Shown: in pieces, positions 20,084 through 46,949 of the stretch
Layout: every line of letters starts with the position of its first letter
How positions within the stretch are numbered: the stretch's first letter is position 1
Source: a phage
Length of the DNA: 49,713 nucleotides
Reading direction: 5' to 3' (one strand)
Sequence record: NC_130088.1
Program-made: the position numbers and the translations under genes
The notes under the pieces: generated by a model
Seen by the model: only the letters and a program-made list of their open reading frames with translations
The model's database searches: none
Told to the model about the DNA's origin: nothing

Positions 20084-20096
20084 AAGGAGGTAAATC

Positions 20097-20135
20097 AATG
20101 CCCTGGCTTAACGGTCGGGGCATTTGTTTTCTTTT
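20097..20135 (+). terminator. Putative terminator after J (stem AATGCCC/GGGCATT plus T-rich tail)
   Basis: 7-bp stem, 14-nt loop, TGTTTTCTTTTG tail. Confidence 0.35.
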
Positions 20136-20487
20136 GTTCCATGATGTTCACAACTTAATCCGGCGTAAAATTGAAAACGTCTTGATAACAAAAAGAACAA
20201 ATGAAATATCTATATAATAACATACACTTAGAGTTTAATTATTATTATATATATCTATTTGTATTCTTCTTGTTTCTATTGTTCTCTATGGTTTGTGGTT
20301 GTTGTGTGTTTTGTATTGGTTGATGGTTATATATCACATGGTATGTATTTATATATGGTATGCGGCGTAAATGCGTGAACAATGTAACACAAAAACAACA
20401 ATCAGTAAAATCATAAACTTACGATGTGATTTTGTTGTCAGTGCCTACTTTGAACGTATGCAAAACAAAAAGAACACATAAAACATA

Positions 20488-20515
20488 TTGACTACATGAA
20501 ACATTCGCATATAAT
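20488..20515 (+). promoter_or_regulatory. Near-consensus sigma70 promoter TTGACT-16-TATAAT (early promoter A)
   Basis: Hexamers read directly; A-rich UP-like tract upstream; precedes the exonuclease gene. Confidence 0.7.
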
Positions 20516-20543: not shown

Positions 20544-21599
20544 ATGAGCGATTTTAAAGTTTACACCTTTGACCAGTTAACCAACGGTGAATATCACGAT
20601 CCGAAAGGCTGGGCGGCTGAATACGTTAGCGGTTCAAGCCTGGCAGAAATCTTTGCAAGTTGTCCGGCAGCATGGAAATACAGACCACGCGAGGAAAGCA
20701 AAGCGCTTGTTTTCGGTACGCAGTCACACACAAACTTCCAGAGTAGTGAGCTATTCGCAAAAGAGTACCGCAGAGCGCCAGCGCCGGAAGATTATGAAAA
20801 CCTGATTACGAGCCAGGCAGCATTGGCAGCGAAATTAAAATCTTTTGGCCTGACTGGTACAAGCGGTAAAACGTATCCAGATCTGATTAAGATGATGGTT
20901 GATTGTGGTGAGGATCTAAATGTGCAATGGCTCATTGAAATGATCGCAGAAAGCCAGGCGCGAGCGGATAACGTTGAATTGGTTCCGGCTAAAGATTACG
21001 ACGCTTGCGTTACCATGCGCCGCGTACTGGAAAGCATACCTGAACACAACGCTTGCATGAATAGCCCAACAGCACAACGCGAGCTATCAATTTTCGGCAC
21101 TATAAAAGGCGTGAAAGTCAAAGTAAGGCTTGACCATGTTGATATTTGCAAGGATGTGCTTGCAACGGTGATTTCCGGCTATGACGGTGAAGGGAATCCG
21201 GTTTATGAAACCACGCGATTTGATGAAGCGATTGTGATCACTGATTATAAAACAACGTCAAGCGCTAACCCGTCAGAGTTTGCAAGGCTGGCATTCAATC
21301 ACGGATACTACTTGAAAATGGCATTGCAGCATGACCTATTCAAGAAAGCGTATCCAGAAGAAACGCGCCCCGTAGTAGTCAGATTGCTGGCGCAGGAAAA
21401 GAAAGAGCCTTATTTACCGATTGCATACCGCATGACAGACGAACAATTGAAGATCGGACGTCTGCAATACATGAGCGTTATCAACCAGTTTGCAGAATGC
21501 CAGGCTAATGACGTTTGGCCTTCATATGCAAACGGTGAGCCGGAAATTGACCTGCAAACGCCTGATTGGGTACGCAGACAATACAAAGGTTTTTTATAA
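20544..21599 (+). CDS. Putative recombination exonuclease (PD-(D/E)XK-type)
   Basis: 351 aa; D..D(V) and ITDYKT motifs consistent with a PD-(D/E)XK nuclease; followed by Erf-like and SSB genes. Confidence 0.5.
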   Translation: MSDFKVYTFDQLTNGEYHDPKGWAAEYVSGSSLAEIFASCPAAWKYRPREESKALVFGTQSHTNFQSSELFAKEYRRAPAPEDYENLITSQAALAAKLKSFGLTGTSGKTYPDLIKMMVDCGEDLNVQWLIEMIAESQARADNVELVPAKDYDACVTMRRVLESIPEHNACMNSPTAQRELSIFGTIKGVKVKVRLDHVDICKDVLATVISGYDGEGNPVYETTRFDEAIVITDYKTTSSANPSEFARLAFNHGYYLKMALQHDLFKKAYPEETRPVVVRLLAQEKKEPYLPIAYRMTDEQLKIGRLQYMSVINQFAECQANDVWPSYANGEPEIDLQTPDWVRRQYKGFL

Positions 21600-38494: not shown

Positions 38495-38537
38495 ATGATA
38501 CCAATCAGAGCGTTATCGTTTTTAGCAATTCGTGCTA
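38495..38537 (-). promoter_or_regulatory. Conserved box (GAATTGC variant) plus TATCAT (class-2 unit, minus strand)
   Basis: Box overlaps the last codons (NSTNC*) of the upstream small ORF. Confidence 0.5.
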
Positions 38538-38689
38538 TTTACGGCGATAAACGGATATCCTGTTAAATCTGCATTTCTATAACGTGCAGACCTAACCCAA
38601 CAGCCGCCTTTGCTCATAATTAAAGCGTTTTTATGGCGAATGTTCACGCGGTAAATTCTTCCGGTTTTTATGTTTTTGAAGTAGGTCAT
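38522..38689 (-). CDS. Small hypothetical protein (55 aa, below ORF-track cutoff) ending NSTNC
   Basis: TGATG-type coupling to the upstream gene; hand-translated; C-terminus encoded by the conserved box. Confidence 0.35.
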   Translation of the reverse strand: MTYFKNIKTGRIYRVNIRHKNALIMSKGGCWVRSARYRNADLTGYPFIAVNSTNC

Positions 38690-38919
38690 AATTTAACCTC
38701 ATGATACTCTATAAACTCTTGCACATATGCGCATTCGCGCGGCGACTCCTGGCCTTTTATCACCTCACAGCCACCATTAAACAGATAGCAGTGCTGGCAA
38801 AGGTTGCCACCTGCGTTTTCCTCAGCGATCTGAATTCCGGTACACAAACCGCCACCAAACCTATGAGGAAAATCGTAAGCCTGGCAGCGGCACGTTGCTT
38901 GATTCCGCTTACGTTTCAT
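38686..38919 (-). CDS. Small cysteine-rich (zinc-binding-like) protein
   Basis: 77 aa with about 8 Cys in CxC / CxxC arrangement. Confidence 0.4.
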   Translation of the reverse strand: MKRKRNQATCRCQAYDFPHRFGGGLCTGIQIAEENAGGNLCQHCYLFNGGCEVIKGQESPRECAYVQEFIEYHEVKL

Positions 38920-39200
38920 TAGATGTTCTCGCTAATAAACTGGATAACCTGGCGAAGATGTTTTTCATCTTTAATTAATGCTGGCAATTCTTCCATAACT
39001 TCTTTTTTAAGATAAATGTTTGCATTCCAGGTGAATGAGCCATCACCATTTACGCGGTAAGAGCAAAGCCATTCGCAATCATTATCAGATTCCCAAATGC
39101 ACAGCGTTTCAAATTCTTCAAACTTGTTGTAACCCGTTTCAATGCTTAACTCAATGCCACGTTTGCCAGCGAAGTTAGTAGTTGTTTTTGATACCATCAT
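38919..39200 (-). CDS. Hypothetical protein
   Basis: 93 aa. Confidence 0.4.
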   Translation of the reverse strand: MMVSKTTTNFAGKRGIELSIETGYNKFEEFETLCIWESDNDCEWLCSYRVNGDGSFTWNANIYLKKEVMEELPALIKDEKHLRQVIQFISENI

Positions 39201-39232
39201 TTTAAAATTCTCCGGTTCGTTTCGATGAATGC

Positions 39233-39275
39233 ATTATGCCAAAACAAACCGGATCGCTTTTAACAAAAAGTGCTA
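39233..39275 (-). promoter_or_regulatory. Conserved 19-bp box plus CATAAT (class-2 unit, minus strand)
   Basis: Box/gap/-10, CATCGAAAC leader. Confidence 0.5.
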
Positions 39276-39377
39276 TTTAATTAAAATACGAATACCTTTT
39301 CGCACGCTTTCCGTCGCCTCCGTAATGGTCATTAGCAACAGCAAGAATCCAAGCGTTAGGAATAAAAAATAGCTTCA

Positions 39378-39572
39378 TCAATCACTCTCCATGACAATTA
39401 CAGGCTCCAGGCGCTCAAGCACCACTTTGAAATCGGAGTAAAAAGTAGGGCGACGTTTTGTTAATTCCTCATATGTATCAGTTGCCAGGCAAGCGCGATC
39501 ACCTTCATAGCACACAACTCGCTTACCATTTGCGCGACTGATTGCAACGACGCGATAAGTATTATTGATCAT
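39378..39572 (-). CDS. Hypothetical protein
   Basis: 64 aa. Confidence 0.35.
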   Translation of the reverse strand: MINNTYRVVAISRANGKRVVCYEGDRACLATDTYEELTKRRPTFYSDFKVVLERLEPVIVMESD

Positions 39573-39805
39573 TTCATCACCTCAATTGAATAAATACTTT
39601 CAACTCCTGGCGCGTATAACCGATCTCCATCTTCAGTTATGCAAAGACAAAGGGCAAGGCCGCGATTGTCTGAAATATGCAAGTCATTTTGTCTATCCAT
39701 CAAAATTTCATATTCGCGATCTTCATCAAAGCGCCAAACGCTTAACATGCACTTTCCAGATGATTTAACTTTTACTTTCTTTCCGGCGAAATTTAAACGA
39801 CTCAT
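39569..39805 (-). CDS. Hypothetical protein
   Basis: 78 aa. Confidence 0.35.
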   Translation of the reverse strand: MSRLNFAGKKVKVKSSGKCMLSVWRFDEDREYEILMDRQNDLHISDNRGLALCLCITEDGDRLYAPGVESIYSIEVMK

Positions 39806-40020
39806 TGCGCCACCTCCACAGTTTCAAATACGGTATTGAATGCCAGAAGTTTAAATTTCTTGCCAGGCTCAACCACTGCGATATTCCAGGTAATGCCGCC
39901 GTGATATGCAACCATATCATCAATATCAACAGTAACCTCAGTACCTTTTTTGAACAATCCTTTTTCGTGGCTCGCATCGCGTACAGTAACCACAGTTTCG
40001 AATTGAGTTTGAATTTCCAT
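39802..40020 (-). CDS. Hypothetical protein
   Basis: 72 aa. Confidence 0.4.
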   Translation of the reverse strand: MEIQTQFETVVTVRDASHEKGLFKKGTEVTVDIDDMVAYHGGITWNIAVVEPGKKFKLLAFNTVFETVEVAQ

Positions 40021-40051
40021 CGTTAATCTCCTGATTGGTTTCGATGGGGTA

Positions 40052-40094
40052 ATTATATCAAGATACCCCGATCCGGTTTTAACAAAAAATGCTA
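40052..40094 (-). promoter_or_regulatory. Conserved 19-bp box plus TATAAT inside a hairpin loop (class-2 unit, minus strand)
   Basis: GGGGTA..TACCCC stem around the -10. Confidence 0.5.
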
Positions 40095-40095
40095 T

Positions 40096-40530
40096 TTACA
40101 GCCATTCGCCGGAAACAATGAAATCAGTGAAATCGTCATGATCCAAAATGCTGTGATAGCCAGTGCAATAATCATTTTTAACCATGTTACCACGCAAACG
40201 CACATAATCATCCTTTCGATCCGTAATCCAACGAATAAAGCGAGCGTTACGTTGTGGTATCGTTCCGGCGTAAGCCTCTTTGAATCCAATGTGTGCGATG
40301 AATGCCACAAAGCGGATTTGCAAGCCTGGATTGTCTTTCTTTGCCTCGTTAACCAGGTCGCGGAAGTTTTCACGCGTTGGCTTTACCGGAACCAATTCGC
40401 CTAACTCGATCATGCGGTTGAAGTCTGAAATGCTGGAATATGATTGCATAAACAGCCCATCGCTACCAAACATCACAACTCCGTTTTCGATGAAGTAAGT
40501 TTGTCCGTTGTATTTGTTTGTGTATTTCAT
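40096..40530 (-). CDS. Hypothetical protein
   Basis: 144 aa from internal ATG with GAGG SD. Confidence 0.45.
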   Translation of the reverse strand: MKYTNKYNGQTYFIENGVVMFGSDGLFMQSYSSISDFNRMIELGELVPVKPTRENFRDLVNEAKKDNPGLQIRFVAFIAHIGFKEAYAGTIPQRNARFIRWITDRKDDYVRLRGNMVKNDYCTGYHSILDHDDFTDFIVSGEWL

Positions 40531-40561
40531 CGTGAATTCCTCAGTTAGTTTCGATGAAGTA

Positions 40562-40604
40562 ATCATAGCAATTCGTGACTGATTGGTTTTAACAAAAAGT
40601 GCTA
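40562..40604 (-). promoter_or_regulatory. Conserved 19-bp box plus TATGAT (class-2 unit, minus strand), first unit of the leftward operon
   Basis: Box/gap/-10, CATCGAAAC leader. Confidence 0.5.
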
Positions 40605-40613
40605 TTCATGCAG

Positions 40614-40643
40614 TAGACCGATTGGTCTAGACCGTTTGGTCTA
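40614..40643. promoter_or_regulatory. Operator-like composite palindrome TAGACC-gatt-GGTCTAGACC-gttt-GGTCTA
   Basis: Three GGTCTA half-sites in alternating orientation; a fourth GGTCTA at about 41086. Confidence 0.4.
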
Positions 40644-40700
40644 ATGAACGCATCGTTTTGTGTATCGAACGCATTCATGATCCTGTTACGTGATCGTTAT

Positions 40701-40781
40701 ATGATCAGATGATGATTGATGTGTGAGATTTTGTGATTGAAATTGATTTGATTTGATTAGATTTGAGTAGTGAGTGAGTAG
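40701..40781. repeat. Iteron-like array of short direct repeats (GATT / TGATTGA / GTGAGT units) in AT-rich DNA
   Basis: Direct reading; no ORF. Confidence 0.5.
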
Positions 40782-41247
40782 AAATAATCACACCTTGCCG
40801 ATCAGTGAAAACTTTTCCCGCAAAACATCACTCCAGGCTACGCGCTGTTATCTTCCGTTCATGGGTGTTCACAAATCTATCCGGCGTAGTTCTCCGACGG
40901 TTCTATGTGTTAGCCACACAAAAAGAACAAAATAAAACTCTATATAATAATAATTAAAACAGTAAGTTATCTATATATATGTATTTATTTGTTTCTATAC
41001 TGTTTCTAATGTTCCATATGGTTAGTGGTGGGTGATATATTGTTGATGGTGGTATTTGGTTAATATTTAGCCTATTGCGCCTGGTCTAGTGGTGGATTGA
41101 GAAAAATATATTTATATATAGGAATCCGCGAAAATTCATGAACGTATGAACAGCCAAAGAACGCGTTTTCAATTTCAAGTAAAACATTCACTTACGCTGA
41201 AAATTTGTTCCACTATAGGTATGGAACGTAAGCACACAAAAAACTAC

Positions 41248-41276
41248 TTGACGAGAACAAATGGCGGCGATAATAT
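41248..41276 (+). promoter_or_regulatory. Sigma70-like promoter TTGACG-17-TAATAT (early promoter B)
   Basis: Hexamers read directly; leader and SD paralogous to promoter A. Confidence 0.65.
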
Positions 41277-41312
41277 GCCACAACGAACTAACCAACAGGA
41301 GGATAACCAATC

Positions 41313-41762
41313 ATGGCAACTACCAAAGAGTTTTGCGACAGCTTGCGTGAACTGGCGAAGAAGTTAGCAAGCGGAGAGCTTGATAATTACATCATTGCCG
41401 ATGCTCTTATCGAGGACAATCTCGACGAGCAAGACCGGAAGAAGGTCAACGCCTCATACATTCGCACGATCATGAATCGCGTCCCTGACGTGAAGGAGAT
41501 CGGAACGGTTTCAATTACTCGCACTGATCCGGTTGAGGAAGCGCCAGGGTTTAAGGTGGCAATCAACCGCGAGGCAAAGCGACAGGTATTCACAAAAAAT
41601 GATATTCCTGCACTGGAAAAGCGGATCGGTGAGCGAATCGCCAAGCGACTGCTAAACACAATGCCAAATATCACGGATCTGGAAGGTGAACAACTCCAGG
41701 GCGCGGCAATAGGAATTAAACGTTATCAGGATCTGATTAAGTCATTTGCAACGGGGGAATAA
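41313..41762 (+). CDS. Hypothetical protein
   Basis: 149 aa, SD AGGAGG. Confidence 0.5.
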   Translation: MATTKEFCDSLRELAKKLASGELDNYIIADALIEDNLDEQDRKKVNASYIRTIMNRVPDVKEIGTVSITRTDPVEEAPGFKVAINREAKRQVFTKNDIPALEKRIGERIAKRLLNTMPNITDLEGEQLQGAAIGIKRYQDLIKSFATGE

Positions 41763-41765
41763 ACC

Positions 41766-42014
41766 ATGAATTACGAAACCAAGGAAAATATTGCAAAGGT
41801 AATTATTGGCTCATTGGGTAAAGTTGAGCTAACCCAAAAGCAATGGGAGGAAATACAGGAAATTCACCGTAACATGATCTCGCCGCGAATCATCGTTAGA
41901 TCGAAAGGCAATGAGTTTAAATATGTTGCTGGTTCGCCAGCACTTAAAACGACAGTTAACGTGCTACTCAATAGCGGTGAAGAATTCGAAGTTGTCAAGG
42001 AGCGCGTAGATTGA
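41766..42014 (+). CDS. Hypothetical protein
   Basis: 82 aa. Confidence 0.45.
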   Translation: MNYETKENIAKVIIGSLGKVELTQKQWEEIQEIHRNMISPRIIVRSKGNEFKYVAGSPALKTTVNVLLNSGEEFEVVKERVD

Positions 42015-42110
42015 AAGCATTCGCCTTTGTCGCTGCAATGTGGTGTGTTGTTATTGATAGTACTGGCGTGGCGCTGGTTGTGTTAGGTCTGATTTTGTTG
42101 GGGGTGTTTG

Positions 42111-42224
42111 ATGAATAAGAAACTTTTAGATCATGCCGTGGTGTTCTTTATCGCTGCTGCTGGATTTTCGCTGTTGTCAATTGCTTTTTCAATCCTTGCT
42201 TTTGCCGTGTCAATGCTGAAATGA
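42111..42224 (+). CDS. Tiny hydrophobic peptide (37 aa, single predicted TM helix; below ORF-track cutoff)
   Basis: GGGGTG SD; hand-translated MNKKLLDHAVVFFIAAAGFSLLSIAFSILAFAVSMLK. Confidence 0.3.
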   Translation: MNKKLLDHAVVFFIAAAGFSLLSIAFSILAFAVSMLK

Positions 42225-42247
42225 CGGATTACATCCTGATTGGTAAA

Positions 42248-42290
42248 TAGCACTTTTTGTTAAAACTCAATTGGGGTGGTTTGGCATAAT
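42248..42290 (+). promoter_or_regulatory. Conserved 19-bp box plus CATAAT (class-2 unit)
   Basis: Box/gap/-10, CATCGAAAC leader. Confidence 0.5.
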
Positions 42291-42321
42291 TACCCCATCG
42301 AAACGAAACGAGGAAAACACA

Positions 42322-42480
42322 ATGACTACATTAATCACCTGGGAACACGAAGCAAGCCAGCCAGTAACCCGCGAGTTTGAAACTCTTAGCCAGGCTTATC
42401 TGCTGGCTGCTAACGGTGGTTATTACAAGGCGCAAGTCATTGATGAAATTGGGGTGATTGTTTATGAGTTTAAAGCGTGA
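42322..42480 (+). CDS. Small hypothetical protein
   Basis: 52 aa from ATG after GAGG SD. Confidence 0.35.
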   Translation: MTTLITWEHEASQPVTREFETLSQAYLLAANGGYYKAQVIDEIGVIVYEFKA

Positions 42481-42664
42481 TGTGGCCTACCAGAGTGCAT
42501 ACGGTACGCGCCAATACAAATGGGACGGCGTGAACGTTTGGACTCGCGGATTCCCTGGAGAGATCTGGAAGCAAGCAATTGGCTGGCCTCAACCGAACAT
42601 GACAAAAAATGATTTGGAATACTACGTTAACAAGGGTGAATTTAAGGAGTGTGAAAATGTTTGA
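42464..42664 (+). CDS. Hypothetical protein
   Basis: Overlapping start with upstream gene. Confidence 0.35.
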   Translation: MSLKRDVAYQSAYGTRQYKWDGVNVWTRGFPGEIWKQAIGWPQPNMTKNDLEYYVNKGEFKECENV

Positions 42665-42926
42665 ACTGAAACGCGTAACTGTTGAGATCCTGAATGATGG
42701 CTCTTACGATAGAATGAAACACTTAACCTTCCCGATCCGCATTGAGAATTGCATTGATTACGGTATTGAAGTTGGCATGGTTGACGTTCCTCTTGATGCA
42801 CTTATCGCGGCTGGCTATGACAAAGAGAAGGCCAATGTGCTGATATACCTGATAGCTATGAAAGCGACACACATTTTCCGTTCACCTATGGTGAATGCCG
42901 GATTGTTGATTGAGGTTATAAAATGA
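42657..42926 (+). CDS. Hypothetical protein
   Basis: 89 aa, SD AGGAGTG. Confidence 0.4.
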   Translation: MFELKRVTVEILNDGSYDRMKHLTFPIRIENCIDYGIEVGMVDVPLDALIAAGYDKEKANVLIYLIAMKATHIFRSPMVNAGLLIEVIK

Positions 42927-42987
42927 GCAGTTGGCACAATGAACATGTAATGCAATTCTACCGCCACAGAATAAAGAAAATGATCAA

Positions 42988-43030
42988 TAGCACGAATTGC
43001 TAAAACTAAATCATGGGCATTTGTTATAGT
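42988..43030 (+). promoter_or_regulatory. Conserved box (GAATTGC variant) plus TATAGT inside a hairpin (class-2 unit)
   Basis: GGGCA..TGCCC stem around the -10. Confidence 0.5.
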
Positions 43031-43064
43031 GCCCATCGTTGAGTTAAGCAAAGGAGAATCAACA

Positions 43065-43637
43065 ATGTTAAAAGCGAATGAAATCAACTTCCCGATCATC
43101 TTTAATTTTCCTGCTGATTATACAATGAAGAACATAACATTCGAAAATGATTCAGGCAATGGCACCTGGGCCAATGGGAATAAAAGCGGATTGCCGCTAT
43201 CATATTTCATTAAACAGCATAATGCTCAAAACCCATACAACACAGAGGGTAAGCCATATTTTTACAAAATGGCGGCAAAGAAAGAGAAAAAGCGAGAAGA
43301 TAACGATCTGTTAGATGCGCTGAAATATTTAAATATCAGGACTGGCCATGTTAATTTAAACGGTGCTGTATTTACTGCGTCAGTCGGATCTAAAGATTAC
43401 GATTACATTTGCAAGGTTGAAAATATGCCAGTTGGCGCAGCGCTTTTAGGTGTTCAGCGTGAAAGTGGCGAATGGGACGAGTTGAAATTTAAACCTCGCC
43501 GCATTGAAGTACACGACGATGTTATTTGCTTGCTTTCCGGTTATTCTGGAGGTTACAAGAGCGGCAATAATTACGGCGCTGAAATCAACATTAAGCGCGG
43601 CACTAACGTAAAAATCAAAAACAGCACGAATTGCTAA
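43065..43637 (+). CDS. Hypothetical protein ending NSTNC
   Basis: 190 aa, SD AAAGGAG; C-terminus encoded by the conserved box. Confidence 0.5.
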   Translation: MLKANEINFPIIFNFPADYTMKNITFENDSGNGTWANGNKSGLPLSYFIKQHNAQNPYNTEGKPYFYKMAAKKEKKREDNDLLDALKYLNIRTGHVNLNGAVFTASVGSKDYDYICKVENMPVGAALLGVQRESGEWDELKFKPRRIEVHDDVICLLSGYSGGYKSGNNYGAEINIKRGTNVKIKNSTNC

Positions 43638-43664
43638 AACAGAATTTTGGGCTTGCGGTATAGT
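43622..43664 (+). promoter_or_regulatory. Conserved box (GAATTGC variant) plus TATAGT (class-2 unit)
   Basis: Box/gap/-10. Confidence 0.5.
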
Positions 43665-43696
43665 AAGCCCATACCAAACAACGAGAGGATCACAAA

Positions 43697-44023
43697 ATGG
43701 AATTAGCACGTAACGCGGTTTATGGCTTACACCTTAAAGGCGGCAAAGGCTCAACTTATGCGCACCTTTTTCATGTTAACGAGCGTGGTCAGATGGATAT
43801 CGCAATGTTTGTTGACCAAAGGGTTAAGAAAGGTGGTGAGGGTGATTGTGATACATTCCGACCGGATTTAGTTGAATACGATCACACATACAGTCATGAT
43901 CACTGGATTGGTCACGGTCGCAAGTTTGTAATGGTTAATAGCCACGTTACCGACACAAGCAAAATCACTGCATCGCAGTATAAGCGCATGGCTCGCAAGG
44001 TTATGAAGTTAGAAGCGCAATAG
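43697..44023 (+). CDS. Hypothetical protein
   Basis: 108 aa, SD GAGAGGA. Confidence 0.45.
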   Translation: MELARNAVYGLHLKGGKGSTYAHLFHVNERGQMDIAMFVDQRVKKGGEGDCDTFRPDLVEYDHTYSHDHWIGHGRKFVMVNSHVTDTSKITASQYKRMARKVMKLEAQ

Positions 44024-44063
44024 CACGAAATGTTAAGCGGCCATGTGTGCTGATTGGTACAAT
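44021..44063 (+). promoter_or_regulatory. Degenerate conserved box plus TACAAT (class-2 unit)
   Basis: TAGCACGAAATGTTAAG, 22-nt gap, TACAAT. Confidence 0.4.
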
Positions 44064-44095
44064 GACCGCATCAACCAACAATAGAGGATAGAAAA

Positions 44096-44203
44096 ATGTC
44101 AAAAGAATCAATTAAGCAGTTTCTGAAATACGGCTCTATGATTGTGCTCGCTACCGTTGTGCTGGCTGGCATAGCTTACAGTGTCATCGAATTTGTGGGG
44201 TAA
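44096..44203 (+). CDS. Tiny membrane peptide (35 aa; below ORF-track cutoff)
   Basis: SD AGAGGA; hydrophobic core MIVLATVVLAGIAY. Confidence 0.35.
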   Translation: MSKESIKQFLKYGSMIVLATVVLAGIAYSVIEFVG

Positions 44204-44206
44204 TGG

Positions 44207-44749
44207 ATGTTTAAGATCGAATTGTGGGGGAAGGAATACGCTAATCACTACGTTGCAACAAAACAGCGTTTCGTGATTTTCGACCTGGATGGCACATTGT
44301 CAAATGGTGAGCACCGCTTGCACCTGTTGCCAACGGTTGATTTGCATCTTACTGAAAGCTGGAGTGAGTTTAATCGCGCCGCAAAGGATGATTCACCATT
44401 CATGGATAACATTTCCGTGTGCAACGCCATGTTTGACGCAGGATACCTGGTTATCATCCTAACTGGTCGAAGCGATGAAGTCGAAACGGAAACGCGATCA
44501 TGGTTGGCTGAAAACGGCGTTTCTTTCGATTGGCTGATTATGCGCCGCTCAAGCGATAATCGGAAAGATACCGTAATCAAAGAGGAAGTTTTACGGACTA
44601 TCGGCCTGGAGAATATCGTTGCGTGTTGGGATGACTCGCCAAACGTTATTGCGCACTTGCGCGGCATGGGATTGACTGTTTACCAGGTTATTGACTACGG
44701 CGACCAGTTGCACGATCACTTAAAGTCTCACGGAGTTGAAAAGCTATGA
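44207..44749 (+). CDS. HAD-superfamily phosphatase (possible polynucleotide 3'-phosphatase or nucleotidase)
   Basis: HAD motif I FDLDGT, motif II ILTGRS, motif IV WDDSPN. Confidence 0.7.
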   Translation: MFKIELWGKEYANHYVATKQRFVIFDLDGTLSNGEHRLHLLPTVDLHLTESWSEFNRAAKDDSPFMDNISVCNAMFDAGYLVIILTGRSDEVETETRSWLAENGVSFDWLIMRRSSDNRKDTVIKEEVLRTIGLENIVACWDDSPNVIAHLRGMGLTVYQVIDYGDQLHDHLKSHGVEKL

Positions 44750-44922
44750 AACTAAAATGCATCGGTGAATATCCAGGTTTTACGGTTGGCAACATGTACA
44801 ATGCAACAATCGGAATGGATCACACATTTTGTTATGAATGCTATGTTGTCATTGATGATGATGGTGATTCACGTAGCATTGATTTCGAAACAGAGGATTT
44901 TATAGAGGATCGTTATCTGTGA
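44746..44922 (+). CDS. Small hypothetical protein (58 aa; below ORF-track cutoff)
   Basis: ATGA coupling to upstream gene; acidic C-terminal half. Confidence 0.3.
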   Translation: MKLKCIGEYPGFTVGNMYNATIGMDHTFCYECYVVIDDDGDSRSIDFETEDFIEDRYL

Positions 44923-45019
44923 TTGAAAACTATGATCCAATGGCGTTTGCCTGGGGCGTTGGTGCTTTCGTGGTGGCGGTTGTGATTTGCTTATGGGATA
45001 TAAACCGGATGGATAGATA

Positions 45020-45205
45020 ATGCTTACTGCTTTTTTAATTTTGATTGTCATTATGCTTTACGTTTGCGGCGCTTTCCTGATGCGAGCGCTACTAAAAGAG
45101 GCTGACGCTGATGATAAGGATAGTTGGAAGCCGATTATTTTATGGCCTGGATATATCATCGTGCCGATTTACGAACTAATCCGCGATGGTGAGTTTAAGT
45201 GGTAA
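45020..45205 (+). CDS. Small membrane protein
   Basis: 61 aa, N-terminal TM helix. Confidence 0.4.
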   Translation: MLTAFLILIVIMLYVCGAFLMRALLKEADADDKDSWKPIILWPGYIIVPIYELIRDGEFKW

Positions 45206-45206
45206 A

Positions 45207-45249
45207 TAGCACTTTTTGCTAAAACTTGCTAAGGCACATTTGATAAAGT
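45207..45249 (+). promoter_or_regulatory. Conserved 19-bp box plus TAAAGT inside a hairpin (class-2 unit)
   Basis: GGCACA..TGTGCC stem. Confidence 0.5.
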
Positions 45250-45282
45250 GTGCCTTGTCGAGACAAGCAAGGAGAATGACAC

Positions 45283-45579
45283 ATGAAAGTTTTTATGATT
45301 AAACAGTTTGGAAGCACTGCATATTATATCATCAACGACGAGGGAGATATTTTCATTTCGAACTATCCGACTCTTGAAGTTGGGCGTCATTTCAGAAGTT
45401 CAGTTGACGAAAAAGGAATTATCAATATGGTTGAGTGTGGAATGATGGTTCCCTTCAATAAAGAAGCGGCTGAATTATTCCAGCAATCACAGATCCGAAA
45501 GCGCAACCGCAATATTATTTGCTTTACCGTCGCAATGGTTGTAACTGTTGGCTCAATCTTACTTGGAGTGTGGGCGTGA
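45283..45579 (+). CDS. Hypothetical protein with C-terminal TM segment
   Basis: 98 aa, SD AAGGAG. Confidence 0.45.
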   Translation: MKVFMIKQFGSTAYYIINDEGDIFISNYPTLEVGRHFRSSVDEKGIINMVECGMMVPFNKEAAELFQQSQIRKRNRNIICFTVAMVVTVGSILLGVWA

Positions 45580-45761
45580 TGAATCTTGATAATAAAGTTG
45601 AAACGCAAAAGACGATTGATTATCTGCGTGACCTTGCCGACAAGCTGGAGAATAACCAGATTCATTTAAATGAGATCGTTATTGAATCGCGCAACGTTTG
45701 TTGGAACGTTGAAGAAGAAACATTGACAATGCAAGTTTTAAAGGCGGTAGACAATGGCTAA
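45579..45761 (+). CDS. Hypothetical protein
   Basis: 60 aa from ATG overlapping upstream stop. Confidence 0.35.
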   Translation: MNLDNKVETQKTIDYLRDLADKLENNQIHLNEIVIESRNVCWNVEEETLTMQVLKAVDNG

Positions 45762-46329
45762 AATTATCATCCTTAACGCGCCTCCAGGTGCTGGTAAAGA
45801 CACAATCGGCAAGATGATTTCTTTCTATTCGCCTGGTGAGCAATGCCGCATCATTAGCTTTAAAGAGCCAATGTTTGACATTGCATTAGCTATCCTGGGC
45901 AAAGAGAACTATAAGCGCTTCATGTTGGCTTATGATGACAGAGAGCAGAAAGAAAGGCCGCAAACATTCCTGATGGGTATGTCACCGCGTGAGTTCATGA
46001 TCTGGATTAGCGAGGATGTAATCAAACCTAAATTCGGCAAGGATTATTTCGGCGTAAGGTTTAACCAGAAAGTAAAAGAGTGTGATGCTCCTGTTGTTTG
46101 CACTGATGGTGGTTTTCCAGATGAAATTATCGCTCTAATCAATGCTGGTAATGAGGTTAAGCTATGTCGATTGCATCGCGACGGGTTCACGTTTGCAGGT
46201 GATAGCCGCAACTACATTCGAATCAATCCATATTACCAGAAAAACGGATATAGTGAGCACGATTATAAATTGGTTGATAAGCAACCGAATGTAACTGTAA
46301 AGGAAATTATTAGCGATCACCTTAAATAG
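45754..46329 (+). CDS. P-loop nucleotide kinase (dNMP-kinase-like)
   Basis: Walker A PPGAGKDT near N-terminus; size about 190 aa. Confidence 0.55.
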   Translation: MAKIIILNAPPGAGKDTIGKMISFYSPGEQCRIISFKEPMFDIALAILGKENYKRFMLAYDDREQKERPQTFLMGMSPREFMIWISEDVIKPKFGKDYFGVRFNQKVKECDAPVVCTDGGFPDEIIALINAGNEVKLCRLHRDGFTFAGDSRNYIRINPYYQKNGYSEHDYKLVDKQPNVTVKEIISDHLK

Positions 46330-46369
46330 CACGAATTGCTAAAACTTGCGCAAGGCCATTTGTTATAGT
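46327..46369 (+). promoter_or_regulatory. Conserved box (GAATTGC variant) plus TATAGT inside a hairpin (class-2 unit)
   Basis: GGCC..GGCC stem around the -10. Confidence 0.5.
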
Positions 46370-46409
46370 GGCCTTATTCAAGAGAAGCAACCAATCAGAG
46401 GAATAAGCG

Positions 46410-46607
46410 ATGAAAATCAAATGCACAAAATCAAACACCCTGAATCTGACAGTTGGCGCGATTTACCACATGGAAGAAGGTGTAAACGGGTTTAGCCCAA
46501 CTGTAACGCATGAATACGGCGGTCACTTCTTCTTAAACGGTAAAGACGGATTATCTGTAAACGTTGGCTCTTTCGTACTTGCAGAATTTGAGATCGTGGA
46601 GGAATAA
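46410..46607 (+). CDS. Hypothetical protein
   Basis: 65 aa, SD AGAGGA. Confidence 0.4.
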   Translation: MKIKCTKSNTLNLTVGAIYHMEEGVNGFSPTVTHEYGGHFFLNGKDGLSVNVGSFVLAEFEIVEE

Positions 46608-46609
46608 AA

Positions 46610-46774
46610 ATGTTCTGGATTCATTCGCCGCAAGGGTTGCTTTATGTGCCTGGAGTTGAATTAGAAGAACGACGCGACGGCGACACGGTAAACATCATAA
46701 CGAAGGATTCAAAAGGCCACACTCTTAAAACGTATGTTTTTAACACTCCGGTTAAGGTCGAAAAAGATGATTAG
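46610..46774 (+). CDS. Small hypothetical protein (54 aa; below ORF-track cutoff)
   Basis: SD GGAGGA. Confidence 0.35.
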   Translation: MFWIHSPQGLLYVPGVELEERRDGDTVNIITKDSKGHTLKTYVFNTPVKVEKDD

Positions 46775-46949
46775 ATTTATTGGTTTTGTGGCATTGCTTA
46801 TGTGCGGAATATTGCTTACTGACAATGACACTTGGCAAAGCGCTGTTGGCGGTTTACTTATTTTTCTTGCTGGTGGCATGGTTGGCAGTGATGACGCAGC
46901 AAACAAGAATAAACTTTCCGATCATTTACGCAGAGAGACAAAACGATGA
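46767..46949 (+). CDS. Small membrane protein
   Basis: 60 aa with two hydrophobic segments. Confidence 0.35.
   Translation: MIRFIGFVALLMCGILLTDNDTWQSAVGGLLIFLAGGMVGSDDAANKNKLSDHLRRETKR

Follow-up and report, generated by a model that had tools for sequence, protein, structure and literature searches.

The phage sequence NC_130088.1 carries, in its rightward non-structural arm, several very small open reading frames (ORFs) that code for hydrophobic peptides. We analysed five of them, called A to E, which lie between positions 42011 and 45205 of the window (i.e. the whole stretch of 49,713 nucleotides, nt), together with a sixth one, F, located in the leftward operon. A preliminary description of the same DNA had proposed that these ORFs encode membrane peptides with a hydrophobic helix. 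All six are present in the sequence; their coordinates and those of the other relevant features are collected in Table 1.

Sequence comparison identified the source genome as a Tlsvirus (T1-like; Drexlerviridae, Tempevirinae). Positions 41300-46400 of the window show 100% identity with Citrobacter phage vB_CfrD_Devorator (OL539461.1; hereafter Devorator), and the phages Supreme284, Stevie, Sazh and the archetype TLS are 90-98% identical to the same region, in mosaic pieces. The positions in the window are offset relative to those of Devorator by +7 in this region and by +6 in the left half; the shift occurs between ~20 and 30 kb and corresponds to a 1-nt indel, the window being longer by one base.

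None of the six ORFs is new, and most of them already figure in public records as hypothetical proteins. Devorator has such entries for A, B, E and F. It has none for C, which is annotated in TLS, Stevie and Supreme284, nor for D, which is annotated in Supreme284. Except for D, the exact sequences of all the ORFs are found in public protein collections, only as Tlsvirus 'hypothetical protein' entries. The preliminary description had called these ORFs missed, which is right with respect to the cutoff of 60 amino acids (aa) that it used itself and wrong with respect to the public annotation of Devorator, TLS, Stevie and Supreme284. The Tlsvirus orthologues (TLS gp08 and gp11; Stevie gp61, gp62, gp70 and gp73; Supreme284 gp72) are 79-100% identical at the protein level and are found in the same position and order, without any material difference.

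Table 1. Features of the window discussed in this work (SAR, signal-arrest-release)
Feature	Position	Strand	Characteristics	Equivalents and remarks
Lysis cassette	~32.9-34.0 kb		holin gp38, SAR endolysin gp39, u-spanin gp40	9 kb from the nearest micro-gene
Gene F	39277..39378	-	33 aa, GGAG 8 nt upstream	Devorator gp53, phrog_32259
Micro-gene A	42011..42118	+	TTG start, TAA stop, 35 aa	Devorator gp60, phrog_22353
Micro-gene B	42111..42224	+	ATG start, TGA stop, 37 aa	Devorator gp61, Stevie gp62
21-nt repeat	42246..42266	+	AATAGCACnnnTTGnTAAAAC	closes the module ending in A-B
Stp-like ORF	42923..43003	+	26 aa, MSSWHNEHVMQFYRHRIKKMINSTNC	
Further copies of the 21-nt repeat	42986-43006, 43620-43640, 45205-45225			bound modules
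Degenerate copy of the 21-nt repeat	44019-44039	+		
-10-like hexamer	44058-44063	+	TACAAT	18 nt after the degenerate repeat copy
Micro-gene C	44096..44203	+	ATG start, TAA stop, 35 aa	orthologue of TLS gp08, Stevie gp70, Supreme284 gp69; phrog_17726
HAD phosphatase gene	44207..44749	+	PF25109 HAD_PNKP, 4e-19, residues 22-162 of 180	annotated 'polynucleotide kinase'
Micro-gene D	44919..45020	+	GTG start, TAA stop, 33 aa	orthologue of Supreme284 gp72
Gene E	45020-45205	+	61 aa	Devorator gp70, TLS gp11, phrog_9755

Comparative evidence for the micro-genes

Each of the peptides A to E contains an uninterrupted hydrophobic stretch of at least about 19 residues, enough to span a bilayer, which neither F nor the Stp-like peptide described below possesses. 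The best mean Kyte-Doolittle values over 19 residues are 2.29-2.74 for A to E, and position-independent sums on the Hessa scale range from -3.9 to +0.8 kcal/mol. Nevertheless, hydrophobicity alone is weak evidence for a gene. Over the six frames of the window we counted 17 small ORFs with a transmembrane (TM)-like segment of 19 residues, compared with 2.3 +/- 1.4 in shuffled sequences, and 13 of the 17 are unsupported as genes; most of these are contained in annotated genes, where they are off-frame or antisense, and the unannotated gaps account for four. We thus rejected a hydrophobic small ORF as a sufficient criterion for a gene, and it is the comparative evidence that decides.

Our sample for comparison comprised 72 Drexlerviridae loci centred on the phosphatase gene, plus three further GenBank loci. 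Intact copies of each ORF are present at 10-23 related loci, except for D, which is found in 6. The ratios of non-synonymous to synonymous changes (pN/pS), calculated from summed pairwise counts of the Nei-Gojobori type in which the pairs are not independent, are 0.33 for A (9 distinct sequences), 0.26 for B, 0.06 for C (8 distinct sequences), 0.25 for D, 0.26 for E and 0.23 for F in the proposed frames. For every one of the six ORFs both other frames yield higher values, at least one of them above 1, as illustrated by A (0.66 and 1.78) and by B (1.29 and 1.70, with only 7 variable columns). In addition, all five ORFs A to E have a Shine-Dalgarno (SD) sequence or a start/stop overlap with a neighbouring gene.

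The start codon of A overlaps the stop codon of gp59 (TTGA) and is preceded by AGGAG 8 nt upstream. Two starts, 42011 and 42038, had been put forward for this gene in the preliminary description. Depending on the phage, the codon found at 42011 is TTG, ATG or GTG, which identifies it as the start of A, and we rejected the ATG at 42038, which has no SD sequence. B begins 8 nt before the end of A, with a GGGGG SD sequence 6 nt upstream of its start. It was found in 35 phage records, with a 100% identical protein in 30 of them. The TLS record leaves A unannotated (TLS 1287-1394) and extends B to a protein of 59 aa, gp03 (TLS 1321-1500). That longer version is open in only two of eight distinct genomes and was rejected; thus, the ATG at 42111 is the conserved start of B, and A followed by a 37-residue B is the conserved arrangement. 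We also considered that B and Stevie gp60, which have the same length and position, might be tandem paralogues, but BLASTP gave no alignment between them.

Two observations concern the surroundings of B. Devorator gp62 (42131-42253, minus strand) is antisense to B, lacks an SD sequence and opposes every neighbouring gene, and it is probably a spurious call. Furthermore, positions 42100-42300, which include B and the adjacent repeat/promoter region, are less diverged than any other part of the 5-kb stretch (mismatch 0.017-0.029 vs ~0.1 elsewhere), which points to nucleotide-level constraint or to a recent recombinational sweep.

C has GAGG 8 nt upstream of its start, and its stop codon lies 3 nt before the ATG of the phosphatase gene; 15 of its 18 variable columns are at codon position 3. 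The start of D overlaps the stop codon of gp69 (GTGA), and its own stop overlaps the ATG of E (TAATG). The preliminary description had noted this ORF near 44919-45019, with an end one base short. By numbers D is the weakest of the six, since only 4 phage records out of 50,697 and 2 IMG/VR loci contain it. However, it stays open in five different contexts, with GTG or ATG as its start and TAA, TAG or TGA as its stop: it is followed by E, by the 21-nt repeat or by either of two unrelated genes, and in the fifth context it comes directly after the phosphatase gene. E is present in 23 loci across several groups of Drexlerviridae. Its diverged relatives, with 24-50% identity, keep both hydrophobic segments and the eight invariant residues L6, Y14, G17, R22, A23, W42, F59 and W61.

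Because it is the proposed frame that is under purifying selection, the start codon of A covaries and D remains open across contexts, we consider that A to F are genes. As judged from the sequences, A to E appear to be genuine, conserved micro-genes with an SD sequence or translational coupling and a hydrophobic helix, in keeping with their initial description. It is very hard to believe that some of these ORFs are untranslated, i.e. that they represent chance hydrophobic frames in spacer or regulatory DNA. Such an explanation could invoke the 13 unsupported TM-like ORFs of the same window, the unusual conservation of the DNA of B, synonymous sites included, and the fact that D is known from only six genomes, but it does not account for purifying selection confined to the proposed frame in every case, nor for the covariation of the start codon in A and the tight start/stop coupling. 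Moreover, without D there would be an untranslated gap of 97 nt in an otherwise gap-free operon, and the two other frames of D contain stops in all six genomes.

The five peptides differ in their predicted builds. In A, a hydrophobic stretch of 30 residues has an IDS(T/P)G motif at its centre and is flanked by K2 at the N terminus and D34-E35 at the C terminus. AlphaFold2 (AF2), run on the single sequence, modelled A as one helix from residue 2 to 34 with a predicted local distance difference test (pLDDT) score of 92.7; a kink or a hairpin is possible given the Pro-Gly found in the middle of the helix in most orthologues. In B, the N-terminal MNKKLLDH segment is followed by a hydrophobic helix of 28 residues, along which Ser and Ala residues are arranged with a 3-4-3-4 spacing (S20, S23, S27, A30, S34). 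C has a charged N terminus, MSKESIKQFLKYG, and then a helix of 22 residues, and its orthologue gp08 is noted in the TLS record as a putative membrane protein with '1 TMD predicted using DeepTMHMM' (TMD, transmembrane domain). D has an acidic N terminus, a 19-residue helix with small-xxx-small spacing and the charged C terminus DINRMDR. Lastly, E comprises two hydrophobic helices linked by an acidic loop, KEADADDKDSWK, and a conserved C-terminal F-K/E-W motif. Its AF2 model has helices at residues 2-33 and 42-55 with a mean pLDDT of 71, and its orthologue gp11 is noted as having '2 TMD' (DeepTMHMM) in the TLS record.

The sixth ORF, F, was also thought to encode a hydrophobic-helix peptide, and in this respect the proposal failed. 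F appears to be a real, conserved gene that does not code for a membrane-helix peptide, since its best 19-residue Kyte-Doolittle mean is only 0.71 and the part conserved in 15 loci is the polar motif AVANDHYGGDGKRAKR. The initial observation was thus largely right, with five of the six ORFs as described. As soluble peptides, F and the Stp-like product form a class apart from A to E.

Organisation of the rightward arm and the Stp-like ORF

Copies of a 21-nt repeat divide the rightward arm into short modules. We found 18 copies of this repeat in the window, between positions 21599 and 47717, compared with 0.07 expected, and they are always oriented in the direction of transcription. The repeat has been described for TLS, where its function is an open question (PMC11447400). 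At 17-18 nt after the repeat there is a -10-like hexamer (e.g. TATAGT, CATAAT or TATACT), in many cases extended by TGn and usually inside or just past a hairpin; then come the conserved leader CATCGAAACGAAAC and an SD sequence. No -35 element was found at normal spacing at these sites. This layout suggests activator- or UP-type promoters. A scan with the sigma-70 consensus gave fewer matches than in shuffled sequences and was uninformative.

A and B close the first of these modules. C is the first gene of a module that runs on through the HAD phosphatase gene, gp69, D and E. The degenerate repeat copy and the -10-like hexamer upstream of C have the same layout as the 18 canonical copies and are the putative start of this transcription module. 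Although annotated as a polynucleotide kinase, the product of the gene downstream of C has no match to a kinase domain and only harbours a HAD 3'-phosphatase domain, and no RNA ligase is present in the annotation of the genome. The other neighbours of the micro-genes all encode proteins of unknown function.

TM-like proteins represent 7 of the 23 proteins of at most 100 aa encoded in the rightward arm, whereas the leftward operon has none among its 12 (Fisher p = 0.036). Given this enrichment, it was fair to speak of a cluster of small membrane peptides, albeit a modest one. The region is mosaic. Among eight Tlsvirus genomes, A/B and C with the phosphatase gene are common to 7-8, E is present in 4-6 and gp69/D in 1-2. 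From this distribution, A, B and C appear to be core to the genus and E to be widespread in the family, while D looks like a rare, shuffled accessory gene. A heuristic census of the 72 Drexlerviridae loci yielded at least 18 families of such peptides around the phosphatase gene. Farther along the arm, the slot between gp75 and gp77 is taken by gp76 (46767-46949, plus strand), whose 60 aa include two hydrophobic segments; TLS has an unrelated protein of 47 aa with 2 TMDs (gp17) at this place. A mini membrane protein is thus replaced by a different one in this slot. The mosaic nature of the region, the number of peptide families and the replacement of one two-TM mini-protein by another, unrelated one together speak for an accessory or host-interaction character.

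The only micro-ORF of the interval that belongs to a known family is the Stp-like ORF, which was absent from the preliminary description. It is annotated in Stevie (as Stp) and in U136B and unannotated in Devorator. It matches Pfam PF08133 (Nuclease_act) with 35 bits for a cutoff of 25, its residues 1-18 aligning with profile positions 1-18, and phrog_6763, 'activator of host PrrC lysyl-tRNA endonuclease', with E = 9e-15. Its pN/pS is 0.09 (12 distinct sequences), and its best 19-residue Kyte-Doolittle mean is -0.75, as befits a soluble peptide. Stp of phage T4, which has 26 residues, inhibits type Ic restriction and also unmasks PrrC; its activity resides in the N-terminal 18 residues. The ORF of the window has the same length, and its N-terminal 18 residues, 13 of which are identical to those of T4 Stp, match the family profile above the curated threshold; this segment is the part implicated in the interaction with EcoprrI. 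As to the context, a domain of a healing enzyme, the 3'-phosphatase, is encoded 1.2 kb downstream. In contrast, the C-terminal 8 residues differ from those of T4 Stp, and neither an RNA ligase nor a kinase domain is seen in the annotation of this genome. By its score, its length and its N-terminal 18 residues, the Stp-like ORF is thus a predicted member of the PF08133 family with putative anti-restriction activity. Its last five codons and its stop (NSTNC*) are supplied by the 21-nt repeat copy at 42986. The same NSTNC ending is found in gp66 (which ends at 43637) and in gp50 on the minus strand (which ends at 38522).

Outside of the arm, an unannotated, T-rich gap of 410 nt (20085-20495, plus strand) between the tail-fibre and exonuclease genes contains overlapping hydrophobic ORFs (20201-20323, 20259-20378 and 20293-20370) that look low-complexity.

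Possible functions of the membrane micro-genes

Searches of A to F against Pfam, NCBIfam, PHROGs and the Protein Data Bank (PDB) matched only unnamed PHROGs, whose whole profiles are covered in each case: phrog_22353 by A (E = 2e-23), phrog_17726 by C (E = 2e-27), phrog_9755 by E (E = 7e-33) and phrog_32259 by F (E = 5e-29). B and D have no PHROG match. Weak matches to LHC, PsaJ, AmoA, HGxxPAAW and pilin-like proteins are below the cutoffs and were discarded, as they look compositional and due to the hydrophobic sequences. The TLS reannotation gives these proteins no function (PMC11447400). No functional data on A to E were found in that reannotation, in an announcement of 22 phages, in two papers on drug-induced permeabilisation and on abortive infection during phage entry, or in the CapRel/Gp54 paper; Gp54 of Bas11, a soluble beta-barrel, has no bearing on them.

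We favour the idea, which we regard as probable though far from assured, that A to E are translated small inner-membrane peptides of the rightward non-structural arm that bind host membrane proteins and do not serve lysis. With essentially one hydrophobic helix each for A to D and a helix-loop-helix for E, they would insert in the host inner membrane. Being translationally coupled to their neighbours, they would be made, presumably early, along with the soluble products of their modules, i.e. the Stp-like anti-restriction peptide, the HAD phosphatase and a deoxynucleoside monophosphate (dNMP) kinase. Each peptide might then contact an inner-membrane protein of the host, or of an incoming phage, through helix-helix binding and change the activity of that protein, for the purpose of host takeover or to protect the infected cell against superinfection or membrane-based defence. 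Such a mode of action would resemble that of other small membrane proteins such as T4 Ac, AcrZ, MgrB and SgrT, which have 30-60 aa and essentially one TM helix and act by binding a larger membrane protein, although they have no homology to A to E. AcrAB-TolC is the assumed target of T4 ac. TLS uses TolC as its receptor (PMC11447400). To link A to E to TolC would nevertheless be speculation.

A number of points weigh against this proposal. A to E have no homology to any characterised protein in Pfam, NCBIfam, PHROGs or the PDB, and hence their proposed mode of action is by analogy only. A search of the literature found no ribosome profiling, proteomics or genetics for Tlsvirus. The topology of A is uncertain, given a slightly positive sum of +0.81 on the Hessa scale and the Pro-Gly in the middle of the helix in most orthologues. 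As for B, it has few substitutions, limited to its 7 variable columns, and a synonymous divergence 3-4 times below that of its neighbours, and part of its conservation could be nucleotide-level or stem from recent recombination. Finally, the TLS record carries no membrane-protein flag on its version of B.

The preliminary description had suggested roles in exclusion, in lysis modulation or in the inhibition of host membrane complexes, an interpretation that is plausible and partly supported. If the function were superinfection exclusion, one or several of the peptides in the inner membrane would stop the DNA of a second T1-like phage from crossing, as T4 Imm and HK97 gp15 do. We consider this unlikely, yet worth keeping in mind, as A to E are small inner-membrane proteins whose genes lie outside of the lysis cassette, in an arm with anti-restriction functions as well, and the variable presence of D among close relatives is what one expects of a competition gene. 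T4 Imm and Sp and HK97 gp15, the last of which is cited in the literature as a precedent, are likewise small proteins that phages place in the inner membrane and express separately from their lysis genes, and a functional analogy is plausible. However, they are larger, with more than 80 aa, and the Pfam, PHROG and NCBIfam searches detected no sequence similarity of A to E to the Imm, Sp, Cor, Llp or gp15 families. By direct reading, A to E contain no [LVI][ASTVI][GAS]C lipobox and so are not of the Cor/Llp type, and, unlike variable morons, A, B and C belong to the invariant core.

The peptides might otherwise depolarise the membrane, or be toxic to it, for host shut-off, as analogues of type I toxins, which would explain the early permeability changes caused by T1. 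With one helix and a short charged tail, such as DINRMDR in D, they resemble type I toxins (TisB, Hok, Ibs, Ldr) in length and build. Permeability changes in T1 infection were reportedly documented by Keweloh and Bakker in 1984, although the early change is usually ascribed to the entry of DNA itself. Host shut-off is listed as an open question for the TLS phage group (PMC11447400). Nevertheless, we regard a toxin-like role as distinctly unlikely: A to E have no match to any toxin family in NCBIfam, the Rfam scan of positions 38500-46500 found no family, and a single effect would not need five different peptides. Furthermore, the toxins are encoded by stand-alone genes with an antisense RNA, whereas A to E are coupled cistrons inside operons. 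It is less probable still that the peptides modulate the timing of lysis as antiholins or holins. They are short TM proteins with charged ends, as the preliminary description had noted in its own suggestion of such a role, but the holin (possibly with a dual start), the SAR endolysin and the u-spanin form a complete cassette 9 kb away. The micro-genes lie neither in nor beside that cassette and share their modules with nucleotide-metabolism and anti-restriction genes. With the lysis cassette both complete and distant, lysis is the least likely of the three suggested roles.

As it stands, the analysis changes little, as A to E are conserved hypothetical genes of the well-known class of small phage membrane proteins, present in GenBank and for the most part in PHROGs. 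It nevertheless calls for corrections to existing records: the Devorator record lacks C, D and the Stp-like ORF and has a probably spurious gp62, and in TLS A is missing and B over-extended. B, C and E are sensible targets for functional work, as core genes under strong constraint. A bolder possibility, to which we give little credence, is that the invariant core peptides, B above all, are effectors of T1-like host takeover, which would bind to a conserved inner-membrane complex of enterobacteria and put it out of action. Such a complex might be a transporter, part of the respiratory or division machinery, or AcrAB-TolC as the partner of the TLS receptor. If this were true, D and the two-TM proteins that replace one another in the same slot would represent a rapidly changing arsenal directed at competing phages or at membrane-based defence.

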